This document shows, piece by piece, positions 12,569 through 30,673 of a DNA stretch of 30,673 nt. The first letter of the stretch is position 1, and the number at the start of each line of letters is the position of its first letter. Location of the stretch: the NCBI GenBank assembly GCA_028278265.1, contig JANQET010000278.1, positions 1-30,673 on the forward strand, read 5' to 3'. Under the pieces are notes generated by a model that saw nothing but the letters and a program-made list of their open reading frames with translations, was not told the DNA's origin and did not search any database. A program made the translations under genes and the position numbers. This DNA is from Myxococcota bacterium. Lineage in GTDB: Bacteria; Myxococcota_A; Polyangia; JAAYKL01.

Positions 12569-12697
12569 GGAGAACACAGGTTGCCAGTCAAAACCGTGTT
12601 GTTGAACCTTAATTCTTATTCAGATCGAGTTGGAAGGCCTATTAAGGCGGTGGGTCGGTAGGCCCCAAAAGGTGGTTATCACCAGGGAGGTAAATCC

Positions 12698-13000
12698 ATG
12701 CAAATTTCATTGACGTTCCGCCACATGGAACCCACAGAAGCAATGAAAGAGCTGGTCCGGGAAAAAGTGTCCAAGGTGAAAAAATTTATCCAAGGACCTG
12801 TGGAAGCCAATGTTGTTCTCTCTGTCGAACGATATATTCACGCTTGCGACATCACGATCATTTCGAACGGAAACACCTACAAAGGTCATGATGAAACCGA
12901 CGACATGTATACGTCTATAGATAACGTCATTGGCAAAATCGAAAGACAAATCGACAAGACCAAGGGGAGGGCTCGCGCCAGCCGGACGACGATTTCTTAA
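12698..13000 (+). CDS. hpf: Ribosome hibernation promoting factor / sigma-54 modulation protein (short HPF/YfiA type)
   Basis: 100 aa; 'MQISLTFRHMEPTEAMKELVREKVSKVKKF' is the classic HPF N-terminus. Its position directly after rpoN is canonical. Confidence 0.9.
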   Translation: MQISLTFRHMEPTEAMKELVREKVSKVKKFIQGPVEANVVLSVERYIHACDITIISNGNTYKGHDETDDMYTSIDNVIGKIERQIDKTKGRARASRTTIS

Positions 13001-13102
13001 ATACACTCGATTCGGATCGGTCGCTCCCGTGCGGACGCGGCCGATAGAACGTGAGTATCTTTACCCGCAGCTGGCGAGCTGCATCGAGGACTATACCTAA
13101 TC

Positions 13103-13564
13103 ATGAAATTAGTGGATATCTTACCTCTAGAATCGATCCGCATCGATCTTAAATCGACCGGCAAATCGGCAGTTCTCACTGAACTGAGCCAAATGCTCGC
13201 CAATGGTCATCAGGAACTGAATGTCGATACCGTGAGCAAAATTCTCGCTGATCGCGAACAGTTGGCCACCACCGGCATTGGTGATGGGGTCGCCATACCC
13301 CACGGCAAGCAGGACGGGTTGGGGGCCATCTGTGTCGCCGTGGGCATCGCCAAAGCTGGCGTTCCCTTTGACGCCGTCGACGGACAACCCGTGTCGATCT
13401 TCATCGCTCTGCTCGCCCCGTTGAGCGCGAGCGGAGATCACCTGCGCGCCCTGGCCAGAATCTCCCGCTTGCTTAAAGACACAGTGGTGCGGGGTCGGCT
13501 ACTGGAAGCCCGAACCGAGAAAGACGTCTACGACATCATTTGCGAGGAAGACGGAAAGTACTAA
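13103..13564 (+). CDS. ptsN: PTS IIA-Ntr (fructose-type EIIA, PtsN)
   Basis: 'TGIGDGVAIPHGK' carries the active-site His of fructose/Ntr-type EIIA. The rpoN-hpf-ptsN order is conserved. Confidence 0.85.
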   Translation: MKLVDILPLESIRIDLKSTGKSAVLTELSQMLANGHQELNVDTVSKILADREQLATTGIGDGVAIPHGKQDGLGAICVAVGIAKAGVPFDAVDGQPVSIFIALLAPLSASGDHLRALARISRLLKDTVVRGRLLEARTEKDVYDIICEEDGKY

Positions 13565-13567
13565 CCA

Positions 13568-14560
<993 letters not shown>

Positions 14561-14640
14561 CGCTCGCCTCGTCAACCAGCAGTGAGCTTGCGAAAAGCGG
14601 TCGCGATATCAACGGTTAAAACTGACAAAGAGGGGCGCAG

Positions 14641-15057
14641 ATGATCGGTATAGTGATGTGCTGTCACGGCAACATGGGCGAGGGGATGAAACACGCGGCG
14701 GAGATGATCGTTCCGATTGGCGAACAATTGGCGGTCGTCAGCGTTCAACCGGGCGACAGTGGAGAACGGATCCTGGCCGCCTTGAAAAAAGCGATCGCCG
14801 CCACAGATACCGGGGACGGCAGCCTCATTCTCACCGATATGTTCGGAGGAACACCCACCAACATCAGCTGTGCCCTATTGAAAAACGCCAATGTGGAGAT
14901 CGTGACCGGGTTCAGCCTTCCTGTGCTGATCAAAGCGCTGGAGCTGCGCGCCGAGACGACAGATCTCAGTTCGATGGCCAAGACGGCAAGCGAGTACGGC
15001 AAGCGCTACATTCTCATCGCCGGTGAGTTGCTTAAAAAGGGAGAGAGTGGAAAATAG
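14641..15057 (+). CDS. PTS mannose/fructose/sorbose-family EIIA component
   Basis: N-terminal 'MIGIVMCCHGNMGEG' has the conserved His about position 9-10 of EIIA-Man; about 138 aa. Confidence 0.8.
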   Translation: MIGIVMCCHGNMGEGMKHAAEMIVPIGEQLAVVSVQPGDSGERILAALKKAIAATDTGDGSLILTDMFGGTPTNISCALLKNANVEIVTGFSLPVLIKALELRAETTDLSSMAKTASEYGKRYILIAGELLKKGESGK

Positions 15058-15110
15058 CACCCATGGTATCGACAGGAATTAAAATACTCCGCGCGCACAA
15101 GGGAACGAGA

Positions 15111-15605
15111 ATGGATGAGCAGTTACATGTTCGGATTGACAACCGATTGCTGCACGGGCAGGTGGTTCAATTCTGGATTCCCCATCTGGAGATAACGCGA
15201 CTGGTGGTGGCCGACGATCATGTGGCGACCAACGAAGCGTTGTTGGCCATCTACAGCATGGCCGTCCCCCGAGGCGTTCAGTTGGAAGTGGTTCCGGTCA
15301 ACCGCCTGGCCGCTGCAGTGGCACAACAAGATGTGATGACCACGATGATCCTCTTGTGCAACATCGAGGATGCGGTACGAGCGACCTCTCACGGAATGCG
15401 TTTCGAACGACTGACCCTGGGCAACGTCCACGCGGCGAGCAATCGCACCCGCATCACCGATTCGGTGTACCTGTCCGATCAGGAAATGAAGACGTTGGCC
15501 GAGTTCAATCGAAACGGTATTCGCGTAGAGATTCAGACGTTTCCCAATGAGGTGTTATCACTCAAGGCTGATCCGCGAGGAGAGCTTCAGTGGTCGAGAC
15601 CGTAA
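15111..15605 (+). CDS. PTS mannose-family EIIB component (an alternative upstream start at 15063 is possible)
   Basis: 'RIDNRLLHGQVV' is the EIIB-Man phospho-His motif (RIDxRLIHGQV). Family proteins start a few residues before this motif, which favours ATG 15111 over 15063. Confidence 0.75.
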   Translation: MDEQLHVRIDNRLLHGQVVQFWIPHLEITRLVVADDHVATNEALLAIYSMAVPRGVQLEVVPVNRLAAAVAQQDVMTTMILLCNIEDAVRATSHGMRFERLTLGNVHAASNRTRITDSVYLSDQEMKTLAEFNRNGIRVEIQTFPNEVLSLKADPRGELQWSRP

Positions 15606-16270
15606 TCTGGATTGCCATCGTCGTCCTCACCGGCAGTGTTCTCGTGCTCGAACGCCATTGCCTGGGCCAGATGGCGATTGTCCAACCCCTGACCACATGC
15701 TTGGTCGCGGGATTGGTGGCGGACAATGTGGAGACCGGCTGTTGGATCGGTATTTCGCTACAGCTCTTTGCAACCCTCTCCGGCCAGCGGGCGGATTGGG
15801 CAATCGCCGGCGTCATCGCGGCCGCTTCACTGGTCATCGCTCCCAAGATCGGCTTGCCACCACTGCCCGTCGGCGGCGTGAGTTGTCTGGTGATCGCCTT
15901 GGCCATCGGTACCGGCATCGGCGCCCGGTTCATCGAGCGACGGTTTGCCAAGTCCGATGGAGAGCGGCTACGCCGGGCCTCTCCGTGGACACAGGATAAC
16001 CCGGCCACCGAGCTGGCCGCACTGGTCCATCGGTCCATCATTCGTTGGCTGGCCATGGGGGTGGTGGAGGTCACGGTTGGCGTGGGTGTAGCCATGGTCG
16101 TCCTGTTCGGTGTGGAGCGTCTGTTCGGCGTGCCGGCTTCACGGGGAACGGTGGGCGCGATTGTCGTGCCGGCGGTGGGGGTGGCGGTGATGATCACCTC
16201 ATTGGCCCGTTACCGGTATATCGCCTGGGCAGGGCTGACGATGGTGTTGACCTGGATTGTGTTTCTATGA
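15590..16270 (+). CDS. PTS mannose-family EIIC permease component
   Basis: Polytopic membrane protein. The N-terminus aligns by eye with ManY (ITTLQIVLVFIV...GLVLGDMKTGIIIG versus VIWIAIVVLTG...GLVADNVETGCWIG). GTG 15590 has a GAGGAG RBS 7 nt upstream and overlaps the EIIB end. Confidence 0.8.
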   Translation: MVETVIWIAIVVLTGSVLVLERHCLGQMAIVQPLTTCLVAGLVADNVETGCWIGISLQLFATLSGQRADWAIAGVIAAASLVIAPKIGLPPLPVGGVSCLVIALAIGTGIGARFIERRFAKSDGERLRRASPWTQDNPATELAALVHRSIIRWLAMGVVEVTVGVGVAMVVLFGVERLFGVPASRGTVGAIVVPAVGVAVMITSLARYRYIAWAGLTMVLTWIVFL

Positions 16271-17004
16271 GCGATGTTCGCAAAAGGGAGCTGTTACAAG
16301 TCAGCCTGCGGCTGGGATTGCTGCAGAGCACCTGGTGTGACGGTGTGATGCAATCGGTGGGGCTGGCCCATTGCATGGTCCCGGCGCTCAAGCGACTCTA
16401 TCCCACAGACAGTGAATTCAAACTTGCGGTACAACGCTACAAGGAACCGTTCAATACCCATCCCTTTGTGGCCAGTATCGTCGCCGGGGCGGCGATTCGC
16501 CTCGAAGCGGAACGACACCCAGAGGCGGTGATCGGAACATTCATTCGCAGCACGATGGGCCCGCTGGCCGCTCTCGGCGATCCCTTCTTTCGCGGTGCGT
16601 TGGTACCGCTGACCGCGGTTGTCGCCTCGTTTGCCGCGATTGTCGGTGGACCAATCGCGGGAATTTTGACATTATTGCTGGTGTTCAACACAGTGCATTT
16701 TGCCGTGCGGTTCGGCGGCGTTCTGATCGGATTTCACGAAGGAACCGAAGTGCTGTCCCGCGCTGCACGTTGGCTCAGCCCGACCCGTACGTCGGTGCTC
16801 AAAAAGCTCGCCGCCGCCGGTGCAGGAGTGATTCTGACCTGGGAGGTGGCGACCTTTGGCGACGTCAGCCATTTGTGGACAATCGTCGCCGTTGGGCTGT
16901 CTGGATTGCTGGCCGCGATCTTTTTGCGGTTCTGGCAATCATCGTGGGCTTTCATTGTACTCGTGTTGTTGGTAGCAGGATTGGCATTAGAGGTACTTTT
17001 ATGA
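16267..17004 (+). CDS. PTS mannose-family EIID permease component
   Basis: ATG 16267 overlaps the EIIC stop (ATGA). 'LLQSTWCDGVMQSVGLAHCMVPALKRLYPTDSEFKLAVQRYKEPFNTHPF' matches the EIID N-terminal signature (wNyErmQ...P.L..ly..d.e...al.rH.eFFNThP). The six-frame track's 16045 start belongs to an out-of-context extension. Confidence 0.8.
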   Translation: MSDVRKRELLQVSLRLGLLQSTWCDGVMQSVGLAHCMVPALKRLYPTDSEFKLAVQRYKEPFNTHPFVASIVAGAAIRLEAERHPEAVIGTFIRSTMGPLAALGDPFFRGALVPLTAVVASFAAIVGGPIAGILTLLLVFNTVHFAVRFGGVLIGFHEGTEVLSRAARWLSPTRTSVLKKLAAAGAGVILTWEVATFGDVSHLWTIVAVGLSGLLAAIFLRFWQSSWAFIVLVLLVAGLALEVLL

Positions 17005-17279
17005 CCCAAATGAGTGAAGTGACGCTCACGATCGTCAACGAGTTGGGCCTACATGCGCGGGCGGCAACCCTGTTCGTGCAGACCGCTTCCCAGTACGAGG
17101 CGGATGTGTTCGTGTCAAAAGATGGCCAGGAGGTCAACGGTAAGAGCATCTTGGGCATCCTGACCTTGATCGCGATCAAGGATTCCCAGATTGCCATTCG
17201 AGCCGAGGGACCAGGGGCTGAGCAGGCGATTGAAGCGCTGGAACAGCTGGTCGCCCAGCGGTTTGGTGAGGAGCGTTAA
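17001..17279 (+). CDS. ptsH: Phosphocarrier protein HPr
   Basis: 92 aa. 'NELGLHARAA' is the His15 site. 'GKSILGILTL' may be the HprK-target Ser region. It starts at an ATGA overlapping the EIID stop. Confidence 0.9.
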   Translation: MTQMSEVTLTIVNELGLHARAATLFVQTASQYEADVFVSKDGQEVNGKSILGILTLIAIKDSQIAIRAEGPGAEQAIEALEQLVAQRFGEER

Positions 17280-19027
17280 TGAGAACAGTTCGCAGACGGG
17301 GTATTGCCGCCTCTCCGGGCATCGCCATCGGCACCGCCCGGGTGGTCGATCGGCAGAAGATCAAGATACCCAAGATGCGCCTGTCCGCTGAGGACATCGA
17401 GCCCGAAGTCAACCGCTTGATGACCGCCATCGACGAGTCCCGCCGCCAACTCGAGTCGGCTAAGACGGCGATCTTCAACACCAGAGAACCCCACCGGGAC
17501 CATTCGCTGATCCTCGAGGCCCACCTGTTGATGCTCGAAGACGAATTGCTCGTCAAGGGGACCGTATCGCTGATCGGTGACGAGTTGATCAATGCCGAGT
17601 GGGCACTGGTACAAAAAATTGACGAGATCAAACAGATTCTGGCCGATCTGGGAGACGACTATTTCAAGGAACGCGCTCAGGACGTGGATTTCGTGGGCAA
17701 CCGGGTATTGCGCAACCTGCTCGGTCATGTCACCGAAATCATCGATGCCCAGGGGGAACCCTGCATCATCATCGCCGAAAACCTCTCCCCGGTAGAGACC
17801 ACCCAGCTGATTGAGACGCCGGTGCTCGGCTTTGCCACTGAGGTAGGGACGCGCACGAGCCACACAGCGATTATGGCACAAGCACTGGGTATCCCAGCTG
17901 TAGTGGGAGTAGAGCGCCTGGCCGAACGGATCAAGGCCGGCGATACCGTGATTGTCGACGGCAGTCACGGTGAGGTGATTATCCGCCCCGATGACGAGAC
18001 GATCGACGACTACAGCTCCCAAGCGACCGCCTACGAGGAGCTCGAGAAACGGTTGTACGCCTCCCGCGAGGAACCGGCCGTCACCACCGACGGCGTGGAG
18101 CTGAGCCTGCTGGCCAATATCGAGTTTCCCGGTGAGGCGGTGATGGCGATCGACTATGGCGCCGAAGGCATTGGCCTGTATCGAACCGAGTTTCTCTACC
18201 TGGATCGGCGGGAACTGCCCACCGAGGAAGAACAGTGCCGCATTTACAATACGGTGATTAAAACCCTCGCCCCGCGGACCGTGGTCTTTCGCACCTTCGA
18301 TCTCGGCGCGGACAAGCTGCCCACCCAAGCGGGCGGCAGAAACGCGGAGTCCGCCCTGGGGCTGCGGGCGATTCGCTTCGGCTTGAAGAACCGCACCATC
18401 TTCAAAACCCAGCTCAAGGCCCTGCTAAGAGGGGCCCGAGACGCCACATTGCACATCATGTTTCCGATGATCAGCGGCGTCGGCGAGTTGCGTCAGGTCA
18501 AAAGCCTGCTCAACCAAGCTGCCCAGGAGCTCGGTGACGAAGTGCCGAGCGAGGTCCGCGTCGGCTGTATGATCGAGCTTCCCTCGGCGATCTTCGTCGC
18601 CGATATGTTGGCCAAGGAGGTGGACTTCTTCTCCATCGGCACCAACGATTTGATTCAGTATTCCCTGGCCATCGATCGGGGCAACGACTCGGTGGCCTAT
18701 CTCTATACACCGTTTCACCCGTCTGTGCTGCGGGCGATCGACACGACGATCAAGGCGGCCAACCACGCCAACATTCCGGTGAGCATGTGCGGTGGAATGG
18801 CCTCGGAGCCGCTGCTGGTTCCGTTGCTGGTCGGGCTGGGGCTGCGCACCTTGTCGATGGCCCCCGGCTCGATCCCCATGGTGCGATCGATTATTCGCCA
18901 CATCAGCAGCGAGGAGGCGGAGGCGCTGACCCGGCAATCCCTGGAGATGGCCACTGCAACTGAAATCGAGCGGTTGATCTCCGACTACATGGATCAGAAG
19001 GTCGGGCTGGATTTTCAGTTGCTCTAA
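17279..19027 (+). CDS. ptsI: Phosphoenolpyruvate-protein phosphotransferase (PTS Enzyme I)
   Basis: 'GTRTSHTAIMAQALGIPAVVG' is the phospho-His domain, 'IGTNDLIQYSLAIDR' belongs to the PEP-utilising TIM barrel, and 'PVSMCGGMASEP' carries the Cys. The ATG overlaps the ptsH stop (TAATGA). Confidence 0.95.
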   Translation: MRTVRRRGIAASPGIAIGTARVVDRQKIKIPKMRLSAEDIEPEVNRLMTAIDESRRQLESAKTAIFNTREPHRDHSLILEAHLLMLEDELLVKGTVSLIGDELINAEWALVQKIDEIKQILADLGDDYFKERAQDVDFVGNRVLRNLLGHVTEIIDAQGEPCIIIAENLSPVETTQLIETPVLGFATEVGTRTSHTAIMAQALGIPAVVGVERLAERIKAGDTVIVDGSHGEVIIRPDDETIDDYSSQATAYEELEKRLYASREEPAVTTDGVELSLLANIEFPGEAVMAIDYGAEGIGLYRTEFLYLDRRELPTEEEQCRIYNTVIKTLAPRTVVFRTFDLGADKLPTQAGGRNAESALGLRAIRFGLKNRTIFKTQLKALLRGARDATLHIMFPMISGVGELRQVKSLLNQAAQELGDEVPSEVRVGCMIELPSAIFVADMLAKEVDFFSIGTNDLIQYSLAIDRGNDSVAYLYTPFHPSVLRAIDTTIKAANHANIPVSMCGGMASEPLLVPLLVGLGLRTLSMAPGSIPMVRSIIRHISSEEAEALTRQSLEMATATEIERLISDYMDQKVGLDFQLL

Positions 19028-20019: not shown

Positions 20020-22434
20020 TCAGTTGGTGGTGAACTCCCAATCCACGGACATGGCGTAAAACCCATCGCCGTCAAGCGCGGGGATCACGCAGTCGGTGAA
20101 ATCGTCGACGTTGTTGCCGTCATCGTCGACATTGTTGACAAAATCGTCGAAGTCACATTCGAACACGGCGACACCCCACTTCCACCTCGACGAGGCGATG
20201 AGATTCACCGGATTGGACACCGGGGAGCCCCCCTGACATGCTCCGTTCTCGTACGTGCCGCCGGTTTCCAAACAGGTGGCCAAGTAGATCACATCGTAGC
20301 GATCGTTGGGCTGTGGCGCAGCGGCCATGTCGAATTGGGTCACGTCATCGGGCAGGGCCCAGAGAATCTCGGGGAAGTCGTCCTGGCGGGGTTGGGGATC
20401 CTCGTTAAATAGAAACACGACGTAGGACCAGGGAACATCAGGTGCATCGTCGGTATAGTCCTCCCACACCAGCGTGGGTTGATTGCCCACACCGGTCGCC
20501 CCGTCTTCCGGAGAAACCAGCACGATCGGCGGAACAAAAACGAGATCCTGTGAAATATCGGTCGTGCCGTTCAATTTATCGGCACTCTGTCGGTACATCT
20601 CGTTGGTGGGGGAATCCTCCCCCGAGCCGTCCACATCGATAAACCCGAGAACATAGACCGAATCATCGCTGGTCTTGCGCAGCATTTTCAGTGAGTAGGT
20701 AGTAGCGGTGGCGGGAAGAATGACACTCGATTCCGTACTCCACTGCTCCAGATCGCCGGCCCGAATGTGATATGGCCCGCTGGCCCCCGAATTGTTGATC
20801 AGGTCGCCGCTGACCGTGATGGAGCTCGACCCGTCGTTGTCGGTGATGAAGTAGCTGCGCGTTCCATCGGCCACCGCATCGTACTCCCAGTCCAACGCCG
20901 ACAATTGATCGTACACCTGAACCGTGACGCTGATCGCTTGATCATCGGGCAGGGGATCGCTGGGCTGGTAGAGGGTCTCCGTGAGAGGCCCGCTCTGATT
21001 CCAGTACCCATCGTCGCCGTTGATGTAGACCTGGTAGGTCCCGGCATTGTCCACCCCGTCCCAATCCAGAATGGCGGTGGTCTGAGCGGCCACGGCGCCG
21101 GTCGGTGAGACCAGGGGCACATTGCGGGAGAGCTTGATGATCTCGTCCACCCCATCGGTTTCGATGTGGATCAGGTTCATCGAAATCTCCCGGTAGTAAA
21201 ACACGTACTCCCCGGCGTCGAGGGCGGTCGGATCGGGCCAGCCCAAGCTAAACCGGCCGTCGTACGGCTCTTCGTCGTAACTCATCGAGGTGTTGTCGGC
21301 CACCTGCCCGCATCCCCCGTCATCGAGTAGTACGGCTACCTCACCGTTGGGCAGCAGGACCCGCGGCGGCGTGGTGTTGGCGTCCGACGGCCCTTCGGTC
21401 TCCAACCGCAGGTAGTACCCTTCACAGAGTCCCAGACCGTCCACCCAGTTATCCGATCCGGGCGGATCCTCGTACTCCGGTGGGCGGGGAAAGGCGGACT
21501 CGTGGCTGGTGAAGACGTTGAACGACGAAAAATGATCCGTCTCCCACTGATCCATCAGCTCGAGGTTGACCTCGGTCGCGTCGTTTTGATCGATCACTAT
21601 GGCCGAGCTCGCCGGCGCCTGGGGATCAAAGGGCAGGGTCGGCCGCTGGTCCGGGTTCAACCCGTGGGGACCGTGGGCATCCCGGAAGGCCCGCACGTAG
21701 TACGTTCCGTCCCCGACTCTGAAATTGTAGCTGGTTGGGGGAAACTGTTCGTTTTCCACGGCGACCAATGTCAGCTCTTGATGGTGATCGAGGATCGCTG
21801 CCGGGCTGGTGTAGAGCCGCACGTAGACCGCGGTGCCCGAAGTCGACCCACCATGCTGAGAGATCGTCCCCGAGATCGTTCGAGGATTGTGAACCACCGG
21901 CACCTCAGCGGGCGCGGAGAGGCCGGCCGTATTCTTCAGGAATACCTGAACCGTGAGCGCAGTCCCGTCCGCCGGCTCGGTGTAGGCAGCGGAGACGACG
22001 AATTGTCCCTGTTCGTTCACTTGGCCTACCTGACCGCCGATCTCGGTGGTGCCGTTCAATACGGCGACGATAACGGTGGTGCCAATCTCGCCGCGACCCT
22101 CCACTCGGAGCGGGCTGGCCACATTTGTACCCTGCTGGGGAAGCAACACAATCGGGGCGTCGGGCACTCCTTCGTCATCAGTATCGGTGTCCGAATCGGT
22201 ATCGGTATCGGTATCGGCATCCGCGTCGGTGTCTGTATCGGTGTCTGAATCCGCATCGGTATCGGCGTCCGTGTCAGCATCCGTGTCCGTGTCGGTATCC
22301 GTGTCCGTATCCCCGCTCCCACTGGCGTCGGTTCCCCCATCGGATTCCTCATCATCATCGCCGCAGGCCGCACTGAAACACGCAAAACCAAAGACCAGGA
22401 CGAGCCCACTGGACCAACTCAATAGACGATTCAC
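20020..22434 (-). CDS. Large (804 aa) secreted lipoprotein with an N-terminal (Asp-Thr/Ala/Ser)n acidic repeat and multiple probable Ig/FN3-like beta domains; function unknown
   Basis: GTG start 22434 with a GGGAGG RBS. 'MNRLLSWSSGLVLVFGFACFSAAC' is a signal peptide plus lipobox. It is followed by 'SGSGDTDTDTDTDTDADTDADTDADSDTDTDTDADADTDTDTDSDTDTDDEG'. The C-terminal segment is Asp-rich, 'CDFDDFVNNVDDDGNNVDDFTDC'. The 3' end overlaps the PduO gene start region by 22 nt. Confidence 0.8.
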   Translation of the reverse strand: MNRLLSWSSGLVLVFGFACFSAACGDDDEESDGGTDASGSGDTDTDTDTDTDADTDADTDADSDTDTDTDADADTDTDTDSDTDTDDEGVPDAPIVLLPQQGTNVASPLRVEGRGEIGTTVIVAVLNGTTEIGGQVGQVNEQGQFVVSAAYTEPADGTALTVQVFLKNTAGLSAPAEVPVVHNPRTISGTISQHGGSTSGTAVYVRLYTSPAAILDHHQELTLVAVENEQFPPTSYNFRVGDGTYYVRAFRDAHGPHGLNPDQRPTLPFDPQAPASSAIVIDQNDATEVNLELMDQWETDHFSSFNVFTSHESAFPRPPEYEDPPGSDNWVDGLGLCEGYYLRLETEGPSDANTTPPRVLLPNGEVAVLLDDGGCGQVADNTSMSYDEEPYDGRFSLGWPDPTALDAGEYVFYYREISMNLIHIETDGVDEIIKLSRNVPLVSPTGAVAAQTTAILDWDGVDNAGTYQVYINGDDGYWNQSGPLTETLYQPSDPLPDDQAISVTVQVYDQLSALDWEYDAVADGTRSYFITDNDGSSSITVSGDLINNSGASGPYHIRAGDLEQWSTESSVILPATATTYSLKMLRKTSDDSVYVLGFIDVDGSGEDSPTNEMYRQSADKLNGTTDISQDLVFVPPIVLVSPEDGATGVGNQPTLVWEDYTDDAPDVPWSYVVFLFNEDPQPRQDDFPEILWALPDDVTQFDMAAAPQPNDRYDVIYLATCLETGGTYENGACQGGSPVSNPVNLIASSRWKWGVAVFECDFDDFVNNVDDDGNNVDDFTDCVIPALDGDGFYAMSVDWEFTTN
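22170..22330. repeat. Imperfect hexanucleotide repeat (GTATCG/GTGTCC-like units) encoding the (D-T/A/S)n tract of the large lipoprotein
   Basis: 'gtatcggtgtccgaatcggtatcggtatcggtatcggcatccgcgtcggtgtctgtatcggtgtctgaatccgcatcggtatcggcgtccgtgtc...' has 6-nt periodicity. Confidence 0.6.
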
Positions 22435-22858: not shown

Positions 22859-25800
22859 CTACTTCTTCTTGGGAGCGGGATGGGGCGAGGCGATCGCTTT
22901 GGCAAACGGAGGTGAGCCCGACGGGGGTTGCGGCGGGGAAGAAGGTGACGGCGGCTTGCTCTCCATCGCCGATTGGGCGTTGGCCAGTAGGCGCGCCTGA
23001 TTGGCCAATAGCTCGATGACGTGATCCACGTCCTGACGGGTTTGATGATCCTTGGTGGAGAGCTGGGTCGCGCTCGAGGCGATCGTATCCTGGATCGACC
23101 GCAGCCCGTCACCGAAGGTGCTGAGCAGCGCGATCACCTGGCCCATTCGATCGTCCCCCGTCCCGGCGGTCAATTGATTGCGGTTGAATGTTTTTTTGAT
23201 CTCTGCCCAGCGCTCTGTCTCGGTTTCGGAGAGGGTGCCGGTCATCTCCTTGAATTTGAGCAGGTTGGCCTCGGCACCGGTGGTCAAGGTTTGCGCTTCG
23301 CGGGCATAGTGGTCCAGCACGAGCAGCTCCACCTCTTTGTCGTTCATAATCGGCAGCACCTTCTCGGCGATGCGGTTCATGTTGCGATAGGATCCCTGTA
23401 ACTTGAACGGGGGCTCGGTGCGGTAGGCATCGGCCTGAGCAGCGGAATAGATGTACGCCTGGTTGACCCGGAGGATCACGTCCCGCACCTGGAGCAGCTT
23501 ACCCATCACCGAGATGTAATCTGCGAGCTCAGCCCCGGCATAGTTGCCGGCAAAGTCGATCCCTTCGCGAGATCCCCTCTGGGCCGCCTCGATGATGCCA
23601 TACACATCTTTAAAATGTTTGGCCGCCAATTGGCCGAGAATCGGGCTGGAGGTGATTGAGTTCTCCAGGTAGCTCATTTCGAACACGGCCACATCATCGC
23701 CAATGATGTCCCCCAGATTGTAGGTGTCCGCTCGATTGGCCAGCATGTCGGGGATTTTGAAGGCCTCCCCGCTCTCCGAATAGGGGTTGCCAGCCATCAC
23801 CACGCACACTCGGCGTCCCCGCAGATCGTAGGTGCGCGTGCGACCCTGATACACCCCTTCGATCTTTCGTTGGGCGTCGCACAGGGAGATGAACTTCTGC
23901 AGGAACTCCGGGTTCAGGTGTTGGATGTCGTCGAGATAAATCATCACATTGTCGCTCATTTCGAACGACAGGCTGAGTTTCTTCATCTCCTCCCGGGCCG
24001 CCGCGTTGGGCGCCTCCTGGGGATCGAGGGAGGTGACCTGGTGCCCAATCGCCGGGCCGTTGATCTTCATGAAAATCAGCCCCAACCGGTTGGCGACATA
24101 CTCCATCAAGGTGGTCTTGCCGTACCCCGGCGGAGAGATGATCAGCAACAGGCCCATGCGGTCGGTGCGCGTGTTCTCGCCCACCACACCTATTTGCTTG
24201 GCCAGGTTGTCCCCGACCAATGGGAGGTAGACCTTGTCGATCAGGCGGTTGCGAACAAACGAGCTCAAGATGCGCGGCTTGAATTCGTCCAACCGCATCT
24301 CGGCGGTGGTTTCATCGATGATGCGGCTCTTCAACTCCCGGTGGGCGACAAACAGCGGCACCACCTCGGCCTCGAACCGCGCCAGGCGAATCATGAAATC
24401 GTTGTAGTCCAAGCGGTACCGGCCTTCGGTGATTTGCGGGTGATCACCGACCAGGCCTTTCAGCTCGGTCACCACCGTCGCATGGACCACCCGTTGGCGG
24501 TCGAAAATCCCCGAGAGCAGCAGCGCGGCGACCTCCTCGTGGTACTCCCGGAACGCTTCATCGTCGTTTTCGCGGGCAAACGCCCGGACCCAATCCTTGA
24601 CCAGCACATAGGCATCCGGTTGGGCATTCTTCAACGCCTCCATCGGTCGGAGCAGATCCTTTCCCACTCCCCGGCGATTGAGGTGCCCCTGAAATCGCTG
24701 AAAGAGACCCGCGGCATCCGGGCTGATCGCCCAGTGCTTCTCCTCGGTGAGCACGCAGAACAGATAGGCCGCCGCCTGGTCGGCCAGAAACGGCTCGAAC
24801 AGGCCATCATCTTCGATGAACTTATCGATCAGCGACCTGAGCTCGTCGACATAGTGCTGTTGTTCGGCGCTGCGCTGGAACAGGCGTTTAATCGCCCCCA
24901 CACCGGTGAGCTTCGATTCGATGCGGGCCTTGGCCGTCTGGTCGGCGAAGCAGTGCCAAAAGACCAACGCCAACGCCCGGGCCCGGGTGCTGTACCGCAG
25001 CAGTCCGATGGTCTGCTCCATTTTGCTCAGGGCGTCGGCGATCAGTGCCCCGTCGTGATCGTGAACCCCCTTGACATACCCTTCGGCATAGCGCGGCCCC
25101 ATGAACTGCTGAACCAGGGGCTGCCACCCCGCCGGATCGGCCGCTTGCAGCTCCGGGGTGCCGCCGGTCTGCTGCGACGCCAACAGCATGTACGCCAGAT
25201 ACTCACCCCGGTAGACGTGCTCATTCTCTGAAATCAACGGTTGATCCCATACCGGCTTGGTCTCATCGATGCGCGGATCGGTGATCTTTTCAAAAAAATC
25301 GGTACCGGTGAGATGGAGGTACTGACCGTCCGGACGGCCGACAATGGTCAGCCCCAGGGGTTGGGTGTTCACCGAAAACTTGTGGCGGCCGAACTGGAGC
25401 ACATTTTGTCCATCGACGAACAACTCTTGGCGATCGGTGAGCTGGCGCAGGGTGTCCTGTTGCAGGGTCTTGAGCCGGGTCTGCAGGTCATCGGCCTTGA
25501 TTGCGTCGTCCATCCCCCGCAGCTCAGTGATGATGTCCCGCACCTTCTCCACCATCAGGTCGGCGGCGAAGTAACCGTTGATTTCGTCCACCGACGCGAA
25601 GCGATCGAGCCGCGAGGTCATCCCGGAAAGGATGCGCTCGGCACTCTTGAGCAGGGCGTCGGAGCGTTTGTTCCGTTGCTCGACCAGCTTCAGTTTGCGG
25701 GACTCAAAGGCAGTGTAGATCTCATCGCGCTTCTCGGCCAGGGTGAGAATGAATTTATCGAACTGGGAGAACTTGCCCTCCAATTCGCTGAGCTGAATCG

Positions 25801-27976
25801 TCATCTTGGTCAAATAGGTGTCGCACTTCTCCGGTGTGTCACTGACCTCCAGGTAGTTGATCACCGCCTGATCGAGCAGCTTCATCTGGGAGACAAATTC
25901 CGCCGTGCCCTCGGCCTCGGCCAGCTGGGCGAACTTGGCCTTTGTTCGAGAGCGCACCTGGTTCAATGTGGCGTAAACGGTGGAGATGCGTTCGACAATG
26001 GCCGTGCGTTGGGTGGTGTCTTCAATCTTCAGGTTGCTCACCGTGTCGATCAGCAACTCCAGCTCGGCGCCGCAGCTCCCGATTGCCTCCTGGAGAGCGG
26101 TCGCTTCGGTGACCTTGCCCAAGGTGTCGACGTTTCGACCGAGAGCGTCCACCCTTTTTTCGTAGGGACTGAGCGCGGTGTCTTTCAACAGAAAGTCAAC
26201 CGAGCGGGCGGCGAGTCGACCGGTCTCCTCGGTGACCTGTTGTTCGAGATGATCGATTTCGTCGACATCTGCATAGCGCAAATCCTTCAACGAGATGATC
26301 GTCCCCCGCGCCCCCCGCAAGGCCGACAGTAGCTCGACGTAGTCATCGATGGTGTCATAGCGCCGGCTCTTGACGTCGGTGAGAATGGTGCGAACATCGG
26401 TGGCCACCTCATCGATGCGAGCGCGGGTGCTCCGCTTGAGCTCGGTGACCTTTTCGAACTCATCGATCGCAGCACCAGCCGCATCGACGATGCCGGTGAG
26501 CGGGAATTTCAGGTCGAACACCTCATCCCGATCGAGCCAAAAGTAGGCGTCCAGCACCTCGCTCGCCTCTTTGACGATGTCAACGTAGATGTTGGCGTAC
26601 CCCTCCTCTTTTTTGACCAGAGTCGACACATGACTGCAGGCGGCCATACAGTGCACAATATCCCGGTTGCCCAACTTGTAGAGGTAGCTCTCCCCCTGAG
26701 CGGGGATCTCGAAGTTCGCTCCGGTGTAAGGGGTTTGCCAAATCTGGATCGCGTGGTGTTTTTGCGGCTCGTCTTGGGATCGATTGAACAACAGCTCCCC
26801 GTTCTCGAAGATGGAAAACCCGTGGCAGATGATTGGGGGGGCCACCTGCTGCTCGATCATGTTGTAGGAGAGCAGCACGTACATCCCGCTTTTGCGATTG
26901 AAAAACACAAAGAGGGTGTCCTCCCCGTTGGGGGACTTGATCCGCCGTTGAAAGTGCATGTCCTCCAATCCCTGCTCGAACTGTTTGAGCTCACCGGTTT
27001 GGAGGTAGTAGCCGTTGGCAAAGATGATGCCGTGATCCTCGGGCAGGAGGATGCACGAATCCTCGATGGCGTCGATGCGTTGCGCCTGGCCGGTTTTTTC
27101 GTTGAACACAATATAGCGGTAGCGCCGCTCCTGATACGGTTTGATCATCAGCAGGATCAAATTGCCAACGACGGCGTAGCGAATCTCCGCGTCGTCGAGG
27201 GTCTGATCCGGGTCTTCCACCGGTTCGGCATAGATGCCGCCCCCGGTGTCGGTGTTGTCCTCCACTTTGATCGTCAAATCCCCACCGATGGTCTCGACGA
27301 AAATGCGCTCCTCGATGGAGATGTGGGGATGCTCGCCGGCCCGGTGGTCGTCCCGGGTGGCCCGGGTCCACTCGAATTCGTGCTGGGCGGGTTGTTTCAG
27401 ATCGTGGTCGCTGCGATTGTCCACATAGGTCAGGGTGCCGTCTTCTTCATACAGCCACTTGAACGATTTGGTGTCTGCCGTATCCCGACCGACAGCGAAG
27501 ACCATGAACAGGGCGGTGCCCACGGTGCTGAAGTGGGAGAACCGGGTGTCTTTGTAGTAGCGGTACAGATTTTTGAAATCCTCTTCGAACCGTTTGTCCC
27601 CAAGCAGGGTGAGCTCGATTTTGTGAAAGGACTGGTTGTCATAGGTGTAGGTGGCAAAAACGTCCGTCAGCTGGATCTCGGTGCGCAGGCCCAGGTGCAC
27701 GTTGTAGCTGAAGAGCAGCACATTGCCCACGCTGACCATGTCCTGGGAGATGCAGTTGTTGTCCGTGGTGACCCGTTCGGTCGTCAGCAGTTGGGTCTCG
27801 ATCGCGCCGAACACCTGCTTGCGGGCCTTGTTCAGTTGATCCAACCTATCCTGCAGCACTTTGGACTGGGCGGTCAGACGGCTGCGGATAATCTCGTAGG
27901 TTCCTCCGTCCAGCTGCGCCTCGTCGGTCGGCGGTGTCCCATCGGGTGGGGTATTGGGCTCGGTCTTTTCAGCCAT
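22859..27976 (-). CDS. Giant (1705 aa) cytoplasmic protein with a C-terminal-third MoxR/AAA_5-type AAA+ ATPase core, extensive coiled-coil middle region and a Pro-rich basic tail; function unknown; likely co-operonic with NfeD-flotillin
   Basis: ATG 27976 lies 41 nt downstream of the flotillin stop with a purine-rich RBS. Walker A is 'LLLIISPPGYGKTTLMEY', encoded about 24108-24155. Walker B is 'VMIYLDDIQHL'. The sensor/Arg region 'RVCVVMAGNPYSESGEAFKIPDMLANRADTYNL' is AAA_5/MoxR-like. No signal peptide or TM segment. The tail is '...SKPPSPSSPPQPPSGSPPFAKAIASPHPAPKKK'. Confidence 0.85.
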   Translation of the reverse strand: MAEKTEPNTPPDGTPPTDEAQLDGGTYEIIRSRLTAQSKVLQDRLDQLNKARKQVFGAIETQLLTTERVTTDNNCISQDMVSVGNVLLFSYNVHLGLRTEIQLTDVFATYTYDNQSFHKIELTLLGDKRFEEDFKNLYRYYKDTRFSHFSTVGTALFMVFAVGRDTADTKSFKWLYEEDGTLTYVDNRSDHDLKQPAQHEFEWTRATRDDHRAGEHPHISIEERIFVETIGGDLTIKVEDNTDTGGGIYAEPVEDPDQTLDDAEIRYAVVGNLILLMIKPYQERRYRYIVFNEKTGQAQRIDAIEDSCILLPEDHGIIFANGYYLQTGELKQFEQGLEDMHFQRRIKSPNGEDTLFVFFNRKSGMYVLLSYNMIEQQVAPPIICHGFSIFENGELLFNRSQDEPQKHHAIQIWQTPYTGANFEIPAQGESYLYKLGNRDIVHCMAACSHVSTLVKKEEGYANIYVDIVKEASEVLDAYFWLDRDEVFDLKFPLTGIVDAAGAAIDEFEKVTELKRSTRARIDEVATDVRTILTDVKSRRYDTIDDYVELLSALRGARGTIISLKDLRYADVDEIDHLEQQVTEETGRLAARSVDFLLKDTALSPYEKRVDALGRNVDTLGKVTEATALQEAIGSCGAELELLIDTVSNLKIEDTTQRTAIVERISTVYATLNQVRSRTKAKFAQLAEAEGTAEFVSQMKLLDQAVINYLEVSDTPEKCDTYLTKMTIQLSELEGKFSQFDKFILTLAEKRDEIYTAFESRKLKLVEQRNKRSDALLKSAERILSGMTSRLDRFASVDEINGYFAADLMVEKVRDIITELRGMDDAIKADDLQTRLKTLQQDTLRQLTDRQELFVDGQNVLQFGRHKFSVNTQPLGLTIVGRPDGQYLHLTGTDFFEKITDPRIDETKPVWDQPLISENEHVYRGEYLAYMLLASQQTGGTPELQAADPAGWQPLVQQFMGPRYAEGYVKGVHDHDGALIADALSKMEQTIGLLRYSTRARALALVFWHCFADQTAKARIESKLTGVGAIKRLFQRSAEQQHYVDELRSLIDKFIEDDGLFEPFLADQAAAYLFCVLTEEKHWAISPDAAGLFQRFQGHLNRRGVGKDLLRPMEALKNAQPDAYVLVKDWVRAFARENDDEAFREYHEEVAALLLSGIFDRQRVVHATVVTELKGLVGDHPQITEGRYRLDYNDFMIRLARFEAEVVPLFVAHRELKSRIIDETTAEMRLDEFKPRILSSFVRNRLIDKVYLPLVGDNLAKQIGVVGENTRTDRMGLLLIISPPGYGKTTLMEYVANRLGLIFMKINGPAIGHQVTSLDPQEAPNAAAREEMKKLSLSFEMSDNVMIYLDDIQHLNPEFLQKFISLCDAQRKIEGVYQGRTRTYDLRGRRVCVVMAGNPYSESGEAFKIPDMLANRADTYNLGDIIGDDVAVFEMSYLENSITSSPILGQLAAKHFKDVYGIIEAAQRGSREGIDFAGNYAGAELADYISVMGKLLQVRDVILRVNQAYIYSAAQADAYRTEPPFKLQGSYRNMNRIAEKVLPIMNDKEVELLVLDHYAREAQTLTTGAEANLLKFKEMTGTLSETETERWAEIKKTFNRNQLTAGTGDDRMGQVIALLSTFGDGLRSIQDTIASSATQLSTKDHQTRQDVDHVIELLANQARLLANAQSAMESKPPSPSSPPQPPSGSPPFAKAIASPHPAPKKK

Positions 27977-28017: not shown

Positions 28018-30144
28018 CTAGGACCGGGTCACGCCGAGCAGGGCGGCGGCCTGCTGTCCGGTCACGCCGAGCTGCTTGGCCGTACCGGTCAGGCGGTCCA
28101 AGCTCTTCAACACAGCATCGTCATCCGTCATTGCCGTGACCTTGGTCAGCAACGCGGAGATGGTCAGGTTCTTCAGATCCCCGGCGGTCAAGCCGAATTG
28201 TCCCACCAGCTTGCGCAGCTCTGCAGCCAGATTTTCCTCCCCCGGTTTGAGCAGCGAGCTCTTGACATCCGACAGCACCTGGCTCGAACCCACGGTGCGA
28301 TCGACCGACTTGCCCACGGCCACGGAGTTGACGATTTTATCGAAGAACGATCCGTCGCCACCGACGATGTCGATGTTGGCCTGCTTGAGCGCTTCGCCCA
28401 CCAGGGAGGCCTGGGCCTTGGCCACTTCCTGGCGAATATTGATCTCGGCCAGGGCCACTTCCAGGTCTTTGTTGAGCCGAAGCTTGAACTCCTCGTGTTC
28501 CCGACCCACACCGTCGAACAGCTTCATCGCCTCGGCCTTTTCCTTGATCCCCTCCGCTTCGGAGTGGAATTTCTGCTGCATCACCTCGGCCTCGGCTTTG
28601 CCCTGTTTCTCCACCGCCAGGGCCTTGGCCTCCAGACCCCGGGCCTCGGCCACGGCTTTGCGCTCAATCACGGTCGCCTCAGCGGTGCCGAACTTCTCAG
28701 TGGACTCGGATTTGGCGTCCAGCGCACGGGCTTCCCCCATGCCCTTGATCGCCTCTTCCTGGGCGCTGGCGTCGGCCATGATTTTGCGCGCATCGGCCTC
28801 TTTCTCCGACGCGGCCCGCTGCCCTTCGGCCTTGATTACCACCTCCTTGGCTTCCAGCTCGGCGGATGCCTTGTTGGCCTCGGCGATTTTGATCAGCTTG
28901 ATCTTCTCCTCTTCGCCCTCTTTTTCGGCGAGGGTGACGGCGACCTGTTTGGCCCTGTCGGCGGTGGCGAATTCCCGCGCGTCCTTGATCTTCTCCTCTT
29001 GCTCCACCACCGAACGCTCGACCGCCACCCGCTCGCGAATCACCTCTTGAATGTTGCGTTTTTCAACTTCGATGGCCTTTTCCTTTTCGATCGCCGCCAG
29101 AGCGACCACTCGTTCTTTTTCGGTCGCTTCAATACCCCGCTCTTTTTCCAAGCGCTCGGTCTCCACCGCCTCGGTGCGCTGTTTGTTCTTTTGCGCCACG
29201 ATCACTTGGCGGAGCTTGTTCTCTTCGGCAATCGCCACCTCTTCGTCAGTGGCGATGCGGGAGCGCTCGGCCTTGAGCCGTTCCTCTTGCTGCACCTTGA
29301 ACGCTTCGGCCTCCTGGTGCGCGGTGATCTCCCGCACTTCTCGCTTTTGTTTCTGCTCGGCTTCGGCCTGCTGCTTCTCCAGGACCAGGATCGCCTCGCG
29401 GGTTTCCACGTCCTGTTTCTTGATCGTCTTTTCTTTTTCGCGGGCGATGGCGTTGGCCAGGATCGCCTGCTTGGCGGTCAGATCGGTGATCTTCTTGATC
29501 CCGTCCGAGTCGAGAATGTTGTTCTTGTCCAAATTCTCCAAGTTGGTTTGTTCCAGGTAGTCGATCGCCGCATCGTCGAGCAGGTAGCCGTTCAGATCGG
29601 TACCGATCACCTTGAGGATCTCCTCTTTGAACCGTTGCCGGTTGGTGTACAGCTCGACGAATTCGAACTGTTTGCCCACGGTTTTGAGCGCTTCGGAGAA
29701 CTTGGCGTCAAAAAACTCGACCAGCGCTTGGGGATCCGACGCCCGCGCACAGCCCAGGGACTGAGCCACTTTGAGCGTGTCGTGGGGTGTCTTGTTAACT
29801 TGAACGAAGAAGGCCACCTTGACATCGGCGCGCATGTTGTCGTTGCAGATCAATCCGTTCTTGCCCATTCGATCGATTTCCACCCGCTTGACCGAGATGT
29901 CCATCAGCTCCATGCGATGGATCACCGGCAGCACCAGCATGCCCGAGAAGCTCACTTTGGTTCCCCCCAGGCCGTTGCGGATCAACACCGTGCCCTGTTC
30001 GACTTTTTTGTAACACTTGATCAGCATCGAAAAGATGCCAAAGAGCACGATGGCGGCGACCACCGCCGCGGCGGCCAGGACCACGGTCGGATCCAGGTCA
30101 TCAAACGCGGCGAGAAACGGTGTCGAAAAAATGGTTGTCCACAT
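28018..30144 (-). CDS. Flotillin-family SPFH/band-7 protein (YqiK/FloT-like) with an N-terminal TM anchor and a long Glu/Ala/Lys-rich coiled coil
   Basis: N-terminal TM segment (VVLAAAAVVAAIVLFGIFSMLI), then 'LIRNGLGGTKVSFSG', 'RADVKVAFFVQVNK' and 'DRAKQVAVTLAEKEGE'. These match YqiK blocks recalled from memory (VRTGLGG, RVDVVVAFFVRV, DRAKQVAL). A GGAGGAG RBS lies inside the NfeD 3' end. Confidence 0.9.
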   Translation of the reverse strand: MWTTIFSTPFLAAFDDLDPTVVLAAAAVVAAIVLFGIFSMLIKCYKKVEQGTVLIRNGLGGTKVSFSGMLVLPVIHRMELMDISVKRVEIDRMGKNGLICNDNMRADVKVAFFVQVNKTPHDTLKVAQSLGCARASDPQALVEFFDAKFSEALKTVGKQFEFVELYTNRQRFKEEILKVIGTDLNGYLLDDAAIDYLEQTNLENLDKNNILDSDGIKKITDLTAKQAILANAIAREKEKTIKKQDVETREAILVLEKQQAEAEQKQKREVREITAHQEAEAFKVQQEERLKAERSRIATDEEVAIAEENKLRQVIVAQKNKQRTEAVETERLEKERGIEATEKERVVALAAIEKEKAIEVEKRNIQEVIRERVAVERSVVEQEEKIKDAREFATADRAKQVAVTLAEKEGEEEKIKLIKIAEANKASAELEAKEVVIKAEGQRAASEKEADARKIMADASAQEEAIKGMGEARALDAKSESTEKFGTAEATVIERKAVAEARGLEAKALAVEKQGKAEAEVMQQKFHSEAEGIKEKAEAMKLFDGVGREHEEFKLRLNKDLEVALAEINIRQEVAKAQASLVGEALKQANIDIVGGDGSFFDKIVNSVAVGKSVDRTVGSSQVLSDVKSSLLKPGEENLAAELRKLVGQFGLTAGDLKNLTISALLTKVTAMTDDDAVLKSLDRLTGTAKQLGVTGQQAAALLGVTRS

Positions 30145-30147
30145 GGC

Positions 30148-30673
30148 TTACTCCTCCGAATCCCAAAGGGTCTCTACGATATACACATTTTTATTCTTGA
30201 TGTAGTCGGTGACCACGACCTCCTGCCCCTGCTCGAAGCGCTGTCCCGGCCGGGTGATCACATTGAGCGTCAAGGGCGCGCCGTCGGTCTCGATCACCGC
30301 CTGCCCGAACGTCTCGTTGGCTTCACTGGTCTTGATCACGCAGGGGCGCCCGAGCACTTCATCATCCGGTTCTATGTCGGTTTGCTTGTCCAGTGCGCGA
30401 AACACTTTTTTTATCGGGGTGGTGAACAGCTTGGCCAAAAATGCGCTGACGATCACATTGGGAACCGCGATCACCGCGCCGATCAACAGCGATTCATTGT
30501 GCAGCATCACATTGGCCACCAGGGAGATGACCCACATGCTCAACCCGAAAAAGCTGACGAAGACCATGAGCGGAATCTCACCCACATTGAAGAACATCAA
30601 CAGAGTGTGGAAAAAGCCCCCGCCGTGTCCCCCCTCTGCATCCCCGTCAGCATCTGCATCTGCGTCCGCGTCC
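30148..30673 (-). CDS. NfeD-like (YqiJ-type) membrane protein partner of flotillin. The 5' end may lie beyond the window, since the frame is open to the edge.
   Basis: A hydrophobic N-terminal region is followed by a C-terminal OB-fold-like segment '...LTLNVITRPGQRFEQGQEVVVTDYIKNKNVYIVETL'. The TAA stop lies 3 nt before the flotillin ATG. An in-frame ATG is at 30595-30597 and the tool's TTG is at 30600. The same frame continues without a stop through 30601-30673 as '...DADADADADGDAEGGHGGGFFHTLL', so the gene may start outside the window. Confidence 0.75.
   Translation of the reverse strand, partial: DADADADADGDAEGGHGGGFFHTLLMFFNVGEIPLMVFVSFFGLSMWVISLVANVMLHNESLLIGAVIAVPNVIVSAFLAKLFTTPIKKVFRALDKQTDIEPDDEVLGRPCVIKTSEANETFGQAVIETDGAPLTLNVITRPGQRFEQGQEVVVTDYIKNKNVYIVETLWDSEE

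Follow-up and report, generated by a model that had tools for sequence, protein, structure and literature searches.

A giant DUF3686-DUF7902-AAA+ protein is encoded in a conserved cassette with flotillin-like and YqiJ-like membrane proteins and may remodel membrane scaffolds

What a very large ATPase does beside two membrane proteins is the question raised by one end of contig JANQET010000278.1 from a Myxococcota bacterium. The window analysed here is the whole contig, 30,673 nucleotides (nt) long, and it ends inside a YqiJ-like gene. Next to this gene and a flotillin-like gene lies a giant open reading frame (ORF) of 1705 codons at 22859-27976 on the minus strand, in a single reading frame without interruption. 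The original prediction, made from the sequence alone, had placed an AAA_5-type ATPase in the C-terminal third of the encoded protein, had found no motif in the N-terminal ~1200 amino acids (aa) and had considered that the domain composition may be new. Profile and homology searches showed that the giant protein is an orthologue and typical member of the DUF3686-DUF7902-AAA+ family, and gene order across genomes showed that its gene is the third in a conserved cassette encoding a YqiJ/NfeD-like protein, a flotillin-like SPFH scaffold and the giant ATPase. The general reading that we favour is that the protein acts as an AAA+ remodeller of membrane scaffolds, to which we give a probability of roughly 0.55.

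The N-terminal region was not devoid of motifs, as two Pfam families were found in it. PF12458 (DUF3686, 'ATPase involved in DNA repair') matched aa 41-479 with 625.4 bits against a cutoff of 25 (E = 5.6e-188), spanning profile positions 2-448 of 448, and PF25472 (DUF7902) matched aa 601-681 with 91.1 bits against a cutoff of 26 (E = 5e-26). Towards the C-terminus, PF00004 (AAA) matched aa 1277-1397 (31.5 bits, cutoff 21.2), and AAA_5 (PF07728) stayed just under its gathering score (21.5 vs. 22 bits, E = 2.4e-4). Profile searches thus assigned the protein to a known family, through PF12458, PF25472 and AAA, which partly fulfils what had been named as a refutation of the original prediction, and the 'DNA repair' label that comes with this assignment was not supported. 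None of the NCBIfam models came close to any cutoff. When the whole protein was searched against PDB sequences, the P-loop region of p97/VCP-type proteins was the sole match. PDB profile searches with aa 480-900 and aa 850-1255 gave chance-level matches only (TEX12, 1.7e-3; anti-CRISPR, 8.5e-3), and a profile search with aa 1230-1660 returned only the P-loop-to-beta2 stretch of p97/VCP-type proteins, from which no clade could be assigned.

The size of the family was determined in a search of 5.8 billion proteins grouped in 90%-identity clusters, which gave at least 5362 clusters of homologues at E <= 1e-5. The best 120 of those clusters were 1596-1950 aa long, covered 93-100% of the query at 53-62% identity, and came from Planctomycetota, 'Deltaproteobacteria', Acidobacteriota (Sulfidibacter), Sumerlaeota and Verrucomicrobiota; where they were named, the database names were 'DNA repair ATPase', 'AAA family ATPase' or 'MoxR-like ATPase'. 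A filter-free search with aa 1-1200 alone against 50%-identity representatives found 1429 clusters at E <= 1e-3. Full-length relatives of 1550-2036 aa were collinear even at 27% identity, and this shared architecture extended over at least ten phyla. With one genome per GTDB species, the giant gene was present in at least 568 species, including members of Bacteroidota, Kiritimatiellota, Omnitrophota, Desulfobacterota and Clostridia. Plasmid copies were found on Pseudomonas fluorescens pQBR103 and on Streptomyces and Deinococcus plasmids, with further copies on Proteus, Vibrio, Photobacterium and Halomonas replicons, and no phage-borne copy was found among the phage records searched. Conservation was concentrated in the AAA+ core, where the mean frequency of the major residue was 0.85 compared to 0.46-0.66 elsewhere. 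SPPGYGKT, DDIQ, AGNP and R1415 were invariant in the alignment, and the signature SPPGYGKT / hhhhDDIQ / AGNP was retained in 70 of 70 distant full-length representatives. The suggestion of a new domain composition can therefore be set aside, since the architecture is that of a catalogued, published and experimentally uncharacterised family with thousands of full-length collinear members.

To place the gene in its context, 80 species loci were sampled (here and below, loci are numbered with an L), from Planctomycetota, Bacteroidota, Verrucomicrobiota, Desulfobacterota, Kiritimatiellota, Omnitrophota and Clostridia. Sufficient upstream sequence was available for 67 of them, and a flotillin-like gene was located directly upstream and on the same strand in 64. 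A YqiJ-like gene was also present in 53 of these 64 loci (E < 1e-5). The cassette was further found in Acidobacteriota, Pseudomonas, Streptomyces and Vibrio, and Symmachiella and Sulfidibacter carry all three genes, with 35% identity for the small protein. Large proteins with an AAA_5/MoxR core had been said to have no association with flotillin, which these counts contradict, and the link had in fact been published. Ravi et al. 2024 (mSystems, PMC11237479) described operons of CesT/Tir-PspA, a three-transmembrane YqiJ/YuaF protein, Band-7/flotillin and a 'beta-propeller + coiled-coil + AAA-ATPase' protein, with Dokdonia donghaensis as the prototype locus (PspA ANH61663.1). In that study CesT/Tir-PspA occurred in some lineages, abbreviated operons without the PspA dyad were more widely distributed, and a phospholipase D was added in some Proteobacteria. 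In 15-17 Bacteroidota loci, the window protein's orthologues were found within the full published operon, its divergent helix-turn-helix (HTH) and protease regulator included. The window cassette agrees with the published one in domain order, in gene order and in having YqiJ-like and flotillin-like partners; nothing essential differs, and the window holds the abbreviated YqiJ-flotillin-ATPase form. Thus, the family and its association with flotillin were already described, although PMC11237479 contains neither a structural classification of the AAA+ module nor experiments. In the literature searched, nothing was indexed under DUF3686 or PF12458 and nothing connected a 'DNA repair ATPase' with flotillin; Hinderhofer et al. 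2009, who treated SPFH operons, made no mention of an ATPase. In several Bacteroidota loci (L053 5874-7774; L010 6621-7707), 0.5-2.4 kb of lineage-specific small genes lie between the flotillin-like and ATPase genes and encode predicted lipoproteins and membrane proteins in paralogous pairs.

In the window, the stop codon of the flotillin-like gene is separated from the ATG of the giant gene by 41 nt that contain an element resembling a ribosome-binding site, GAAGAGGAA, and the YqiJ-like stop codon lies 3 nt before the flotillin-like gene. In the flotillin-like protein, a single hydrophobic anchor near the N-terminus (aa 15-46) is combined with a long helical region rich in E, A and K and with a C-terminal domain that is conserved; the protein is 59% identical to its orthologue in Symmachiella (Planctomycetota) and 46% identical to that in Sulfidibacter (Acidobacteriota). 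The names 'flotillin family protein' and 'YqiK' were given by the sources to orthologues of this middle gene. The Pfam models Band_7 and Flot did not recognise the window protein, Band_7 matched 2 of 21 orthologues (best E = 2.1e-6), and a PDB profile search gave only a coiled-coil-level match to QmcA (6e-4). The C-terminal domain, at approximately aa 545-700, carries HEEFKLRL...IDIVGG..FFD...GK.VDR, conserved in the orthologue alignment, and would be a candidate docking site. The frame of the YqiJ-like protein is still open at the window's last base, and an ORF at 30148-30600 with a TTG start is only apparently complete, as homologues are ~205-240 aa long. It showed 35% identity to the first cassette gene product in other phyla (E = 3e-21 and 1e-29) and weak sub-threshold matches to Pfam YqiJ_N (E = 1.8e-3 and 2.7e-4). 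At 30601-30672 (minus strand) an acidic D-x repeat, DADADADADGDAEGGHGGG, precedes the transmembrane region, and a Verrucomicrobiota homologue (L038 5115-5792) has DFDFDFDADVDVDVDADVD in its place. Transmembrane segments or an anchor were thus present in both partners and not in the giant protein, in which a hydropathy scan detected no transmembrane segment (maximum 19-residue Kyte-Doolittle mean 1.25).

The accessory genes around the cassette point in the same direction, as all of them were shown to be related to the membrane or to envelope stress. When all ORFs around 79 loci were clustered, YqiJ, flotillin, PspA, CesT and an HTH-S24 regulator were the only recurrent neighbours. Among the Bacteroidota loci, 17 contained PspA_IM30 (Pfam, 1e-36) and 15 contained CesT_Tir_1 (7e-56), and a divergent regulator with HTH_3 and a weak Peptidase_S24-like domain stood beside the CesT-PspA-YqiJ-flotillin-ATPase operon in 14-15 Bacteroidota loci. 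Its LexA/CI-type architecture suggests de-repression via regulated self-cleavage. In Vibrio campbellii (L087 13834-15612) a PLDc_2 gene begins at the stop codon of the giant gene and is followed by telA, and in Proteus mirabilis (L086 3678-5458) a divergent gene pair encoding LemA and a TPM-domain protein lies upstream. On pQBR103, a 425-kb megaplasmid of P. fluorescens SBW25 (L084, record 85112-97641), the SPFH-giant ATPase pair closes a nine-gene block in which it is preceded by PspA, a rhomboid protease, DUF2491, DUF350, DUF1190, a glutathionylspermidine synthase family protein and a hypothetical protein. This block unites two operon types that were kept separate by Ravi et al.

Several of these features are also what an anti-phage or abortive-infection system would present, with the giant ATPase sensing infection and its membrane partners disrupting the membrane. 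The spread across phyla is patchy and includes megaplasmids (pQBR103), Streptomyces linear plasmids and Deinococcus plasmids; a hydrolase of the phospholipase D family directly follows the giant gene in Vibrio; and a LexA/CI-like HTH and S24 regulator adjoins the Bacteroidota operons. Defence systems typically have large NTPases with repeat-type sensor domains. However, no PADLOC defence model fitted any of the three cassette proteins, and for the giant protein nothing was found beyond a P-loop-level match to mad8 (E = 1.3e-3). There were no copies in the phage records searched, the genes nearby in the window and in the sampled loci have housekeeping or metabolic roles, and the giant protein carries no fused effector domain. 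Its conservation is unusually high for a defence gene: homologues in different phyla are 53-62% identical along 1700 aa, and conservation of the AAA core reaches 85%. A role in defence is therefore improbable.

The motifs of the ATPase itself were examined in a scan of the whole protein, which revealed exactly one P-loop and Walker B pair and so bore out the original prediction of a single pair in the C-terminal third. Walker A is present at aa 1281-1289, although its letters are SPPGYGKTT rather than the quoted GPPGYGKTT, and MIYLDDIQ and VVMAGNPYSE were located at aa 1345-1352 and aa 1392-1401. The Walker B motif reads hhhhDD followed by IQ, and not hhhhDE, in every member examined, including the 70 distant representatives, a departure seldom seen in AAA+ proteins with otherwise intact motifs. 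The invariant Asp-Asp points to an ATPase that may be slow and switch-like. These motifs bear directly on the database name, according to which the protein would be a DNA-repair ATPase in the manner of the SbcC/Rad50/SMC coiled-coil ATPases. Such a role has the Pfam description of PF12458, the NCBI and UniRef names and the long helical region in its favour, together with weak P-loop matches to RuvB_N and RuvB (E of 1e-4, far under the cutoffs). In contrast, SbcC/Rad50/SMC proteins have an ABC fold, a split head and a nuclease partner. The giant protein has an AAA+ fold in its C-terminal third with the sole P-loop inside it and Walker B 60 residues further on, has no ABC-type split head, and shares with those proteins only the name and long helices. 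Pfam, NCBIfam, the PDB sequence search and the fold search all failed to reveal a nuclease, helicase or DNA-binding domain, and neither Rad50 nor SbcC was among the PDB sequence and fold-search matches listed. No SbcD/Mre11-type gene was found next to it, the conserved neighbours being membrane proteins, and no supporting paper for the name was found in the literature searched. We consider DNA repair extremely unlikely. The name is most likely an annotation artefact, which presumably arose from spurious coiled-coil similarity to COG0419 (SbcC), and it is an example of a misleading label that has spread over thousands of annotations.

The clade of the AAA+ module was then addressed with structure models. 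Two AlphaFold2 (AF2) monomer models were built on a 79-sequence alignment, covering aa 1-1100 (mean per-residue confidence, pLDDT, 82) and aa 840-1705 (pLDDT 84; predicted template-modelling score, pTM, 0.73), and their domain maps agreed. The predicted beta-hairpin before the sensor-1 strand is in line with the AAA_5/MoxR-like type given in the original prediction, and comparison with solved structures pointed the same way, with values of 15.1 for CbbQ, 14.9 for dynein, 14.2 for NorQ and 13.8 for midasin compared to 12.7 for ClpB/ClpA. A MoxR/dynein-like assignment of the module is thus supported. Dynein and midasin concatenate six AAA modules per chain and the giant protein has one. The closest solved structures are those of the MoxR proteins CbbQ and NorQ (other members of this AAA_5/AAA_3 group include RavA), but several differences from this group were also seen. 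At the helix-2 position, AF2 modelled a conserved 18-residue loop (aa 1307-1324) without a clear beta insert; Walker B is DD and not DE; AAA_5 was sub-threshold; and whereas MoxR proteins are ~300 aa long, the giant protein has 1705 aa, of which 1240 form an N-terminal arm and 250 a C-terminal extension. A VWA partner is usual for MoxR proteins, and no VWA gene was present among the recurrent neighbours in the clustering around the 79 loci. MoxR proteins work on particular client complexes, and client proteins are organised by SPFH scaffolds, so the giant protein might be a maturation chaperone of the CbbQ/NorQ/RavA kind that inserts a cofactor into, or activates, a membrane enzyme complex, with flotillin as a mere platform. 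The structural proximity to CbbQ and NorQ agrees with this, but the recurrent neighbours include neither a VWA adaptor nor a conserved client enzyme gene, and a 1200-aa N-terminal arm is foreign to MoxR proteins. We regard this alternative as quite unlikely.

The AF2 models divide the remainder of the protein into the domains listed in Table 1. In a Foldseek search with the beta-rich domain, nearly all matches were beta-propellers (Elp1, Ski8, prolyl oligopeptidase, clathrin terminal domain, Ctf4 and EED), with probabilities near 1 but template-modelling scores of at most 0.32, and hhalign detected no internal sequence repeats either blade-to-blade or half-to-half. Owing to the low scores and the lack of blade-to-blade similarity, the DUF3686 domain is described here as propeller-like and divergent, as judged from the model. 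The helical region at aa 431-852 is likewise described from the model as spectrin-like bundles, not as a coiled coil. Heptad-like peptides had been reported at about residues 700-1000; the quoted peptide EVATDVRTILTDVKSRR exists, but at aa 523-539. A degenerate second AAA module, which had been proposed as something to look for, was ruled out, since the AF2 models contain no second Rossmann-like module, the motif scan gave one P-loop and Walker B only, and the segment at aa 923-1155 is modelled as all-alpha. The P/S-rich end of the protein (aa 1676-1705) terminates in PAPKKK as described earlier.

Table 1. Coordinates of the cassette genes, of the domains and motifs of the giant protein, and of the regulator found at other loci.
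Feature	Residues (aa)	Position (nt or locus)	Strand	Basis
Giant ORF, DUF3686-DUF7902-AAA+ family protein	1705 in total	22859..27976	minus	translation, Pfam, homologues
N-terminal long helix before beta domain	24-56	27809..27907	minus	AF2 pLDDT >90; conserved
Beta-rich propeller-like domain, ~27 strands in four-stranded units	62-414	26735..27793	minus	AF2; core of DUF3686 (Pfam aa 41-479 = nt 26540-27856)
Helical array, long antiparallel helices, spectrin-like bundles	431-852	25421..26686	minus	AF2; contains DUF7902 aa 601-681 (nt 25934-26176)
Small five-stranded beta domain	859-897	25286..25402	minus	both AF2 models; invariant G863, F867, V869, N870, H888, L889, T892
All-alpha domain	923-1155	24512..25210	minus	AF2 pLDDT ~90; conservation 0.46, least among folded parts; no PDB sequence relatives
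Linker into AAA+ module, two strands and 37-residue helix	1169-1227	24296..24472	minus	AF2
AAA+ alpha/beta core	1244-1421	23714..24247	minus	AF2, motifs
Walker A SPPGYGKTT	1281-1289	24110-24136	minus	motif
Walker B IYLDD, DD in place of DE	1345-1350	23927-23944	minus	motif; all members examined
Pre-sensor-1 beta-hairpin	1371-1384	23825-23866	minus	AF2
Sensor-1 AGNP	1392-1398	23783-23803	minus	motif
Candidate arginine finger R1415	1415	23732-23734	minus	invariant
Lid and C-terminal helical extension	1422-1672	22961..23713	minus	AF2; near-invariant loop YRTEPPFKLQGSYRNMNR at aa 1518-1535
Disordered P/S-rich tail ending KKK	1673-1705	22862..22960	minus	pLDDT <50; occupancy 0.42, conservation 0.15
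Flotillin-like (YqiK-type, divergent SPFH) membrane protein	708 in total	28018..30144	minus	translation, transmembrane prediction, synteny, source names
YqiJ/YuaF (NfeD-like) multi-transmembrane protein, 5' end cut by contig end		30148..30673	minus	open frame, transmembrane segments, homology
HTH_3 and S24-like regulator, ~1-3 kb upstream of YqiJ-like gene		L015, L025, L031, L034, L035, L041, L043, L047, L048, L053, L060, L075, L076, L080, L083	divergent	clustering, Pfam

This architecture could also be that of a structural scaffold. In such a case the protein would be a coat-like element of the clathrin, nucleoporin or spectrin type that lines flotillin microdomains, and its AAA+ module would only be a nucleotide-dependent assembly switch. 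The Foldseek matches do include nucleoporins and the clathrin terminal domain with its linker, two thirds of the giant protein are non-enzymatic, and the DD Walker B found in every member suggests slow hydrolysis. However, no other part is nearly as conserved as the AAA+ core (0.85 vs. 0.46-0.66), and this speaks for a central role of catalysis or nucleotide sensing; the sensor-1 Asn and the trans-acting Arg candidate are also invariant. A mainly structural role is thus doubtful, and remodelling of membrane scaffolds by an AAA+ machine remains our preferred reading.

For such a remodeller the following mechanism can be proposed. The giant protein would be cytoplasmic, because it has neither a transmembrane segment nor a signal peptide, and the soluble parts of both membrane partners are predicted by the positive-inside rule to lie on the same side. 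The single MoxR/dynein-type AAA+ module would oligomerise, probably into a hexameric ring, since the arginine finger proposed for it would work in trans. A recognition and spacing arm may be formed by the propeller-like domain together with the ~420-residue helical rod; it would dock the motor to assemblies of flotillin and YqiJ on the inner membrane face, where ATP binding and hydrolysis would remodel, load or disassemble SPFH scaffolds. Where CesT/Tir-PspA is co-encoded in the operon, ESCRT-III-like PspA polymers may be targets as well. The whole system would serve in the response to envelope or membrane stress.

SPFH membrane scaffolds are paired with AAA+ machines at the inner membrane also in FtsH-HflK/C and YbbK/QmcA-FtsH, and this pairing is shared with the window cassette. 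In those systems FtsH is a membrane-anchored AAA+ protein of the classical clade with a protease domain, both in the cytoplasm, and the HflK/C cage is on the periplasmic face. In contrast, the giant ATPase is a soluble, MoxR-like protein that lacks a protease domain, and its predicted place is on the cytoplasmic side, together with the soluble parts of the scaffold. The SPFH-FtsH links are summarised in PMC2636767. A second possible comparison is with Vps4/CdvC and ESCRT-III (the PspA/Vipp1/Snf7 superfamily), as the AAA+ protein is encoded with PspA in the Bacteroidota and pQBR103 loci. Vps4 proteins have an N-terminal MIT domain and a classical-clade AAA module without a pre-sensor-1 insert, and the giant protein does not have this composition. 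Both comparisons are analogies, and the giant protein belongs to neither family. Bacterial flotillins and PspA have been intensively studied for their part in organising and repairing the cytoplasmic membrane, and to our knowledge no dedicated ATPase that drives the assembly or disassembly of either is known. The strong conservation between phyla (53-62% over ~1700 residues) and the synteny with flotillin in at least ten phyla make the giant protein an obvious candidate for this role. It is conceivable, and we propose it only tentatively, that the giant ATPase is the missing energy-consuming part of flotillin/PspA membrane maintenance, in which a MoxR-type ring on a spectrin-like arm would recycle or disassemble SPFH cages and PspA polymers as a non-homologous counterpart of Vps4. 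A Vps4-like idea for such an ATPase was hinted at by Ravi et al. (PMC11237479). According to a 2025 review (PMC7619361), bacterial PspA has no known Vps4-like ATPase, and the interest that remains in the giant protein is as a possible ATP-driven partner of bacterial flotillin/PspA systems, the role which that review lists as missing.

A number of observations weigh against the remodelling of scaffolds. Beyond family membership and synteny the argument is guilt by association, with both interaction and substrate inferred. Three loci (L019, L029 and L044) have no adjacent flotillin gene; they showed unrelated neighbours or, by eye in L019, toxin-antitoxin-like insertions, and no alternative partner. 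No pspA was found within 8 kb in loci from outside Bacteroidota, and none is visible in the window, whose contig ends inside the YqiJ-like gene. The VWA protein with which MoxR proteins normally pair is missing here, the DD Walker B could mean weak or no hydrolysis, and the formation of a ring is assumed, the models being monomeric.

Scans of the operon for terminators and promoters were uninformative, with 15 terminator-like sites compared to 8.9 expected, with none at the 3' end of the giant gene. Just downstream of this gene, an 804-aa ORF (20020-22434, minus strand) encodes a lipoprotein-like N-terminus followed by an acidic (Asp-Thr / Asp-Ala)n repeat; it had no Pfam or PADLOC match and was not conserved beside the cassette in the other loci. 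Further away, at 11135-19027 on the plus strand, lie rpoN (sigma-54), hpf (S30AE), a ptsN-like gene for EIIA-2 of the phosphotransferase system (PTS), HPr kinase, a mannose-type PTS (EIIA, EIIB, EIIC and EIID) and ptsI. This rpoN-hpf-ptsN-hprK-PTS neighbourhood is a housekeeping one, neither a mobile element nor a defence island, and it indicates that the cassette sits in the core chromosome here.

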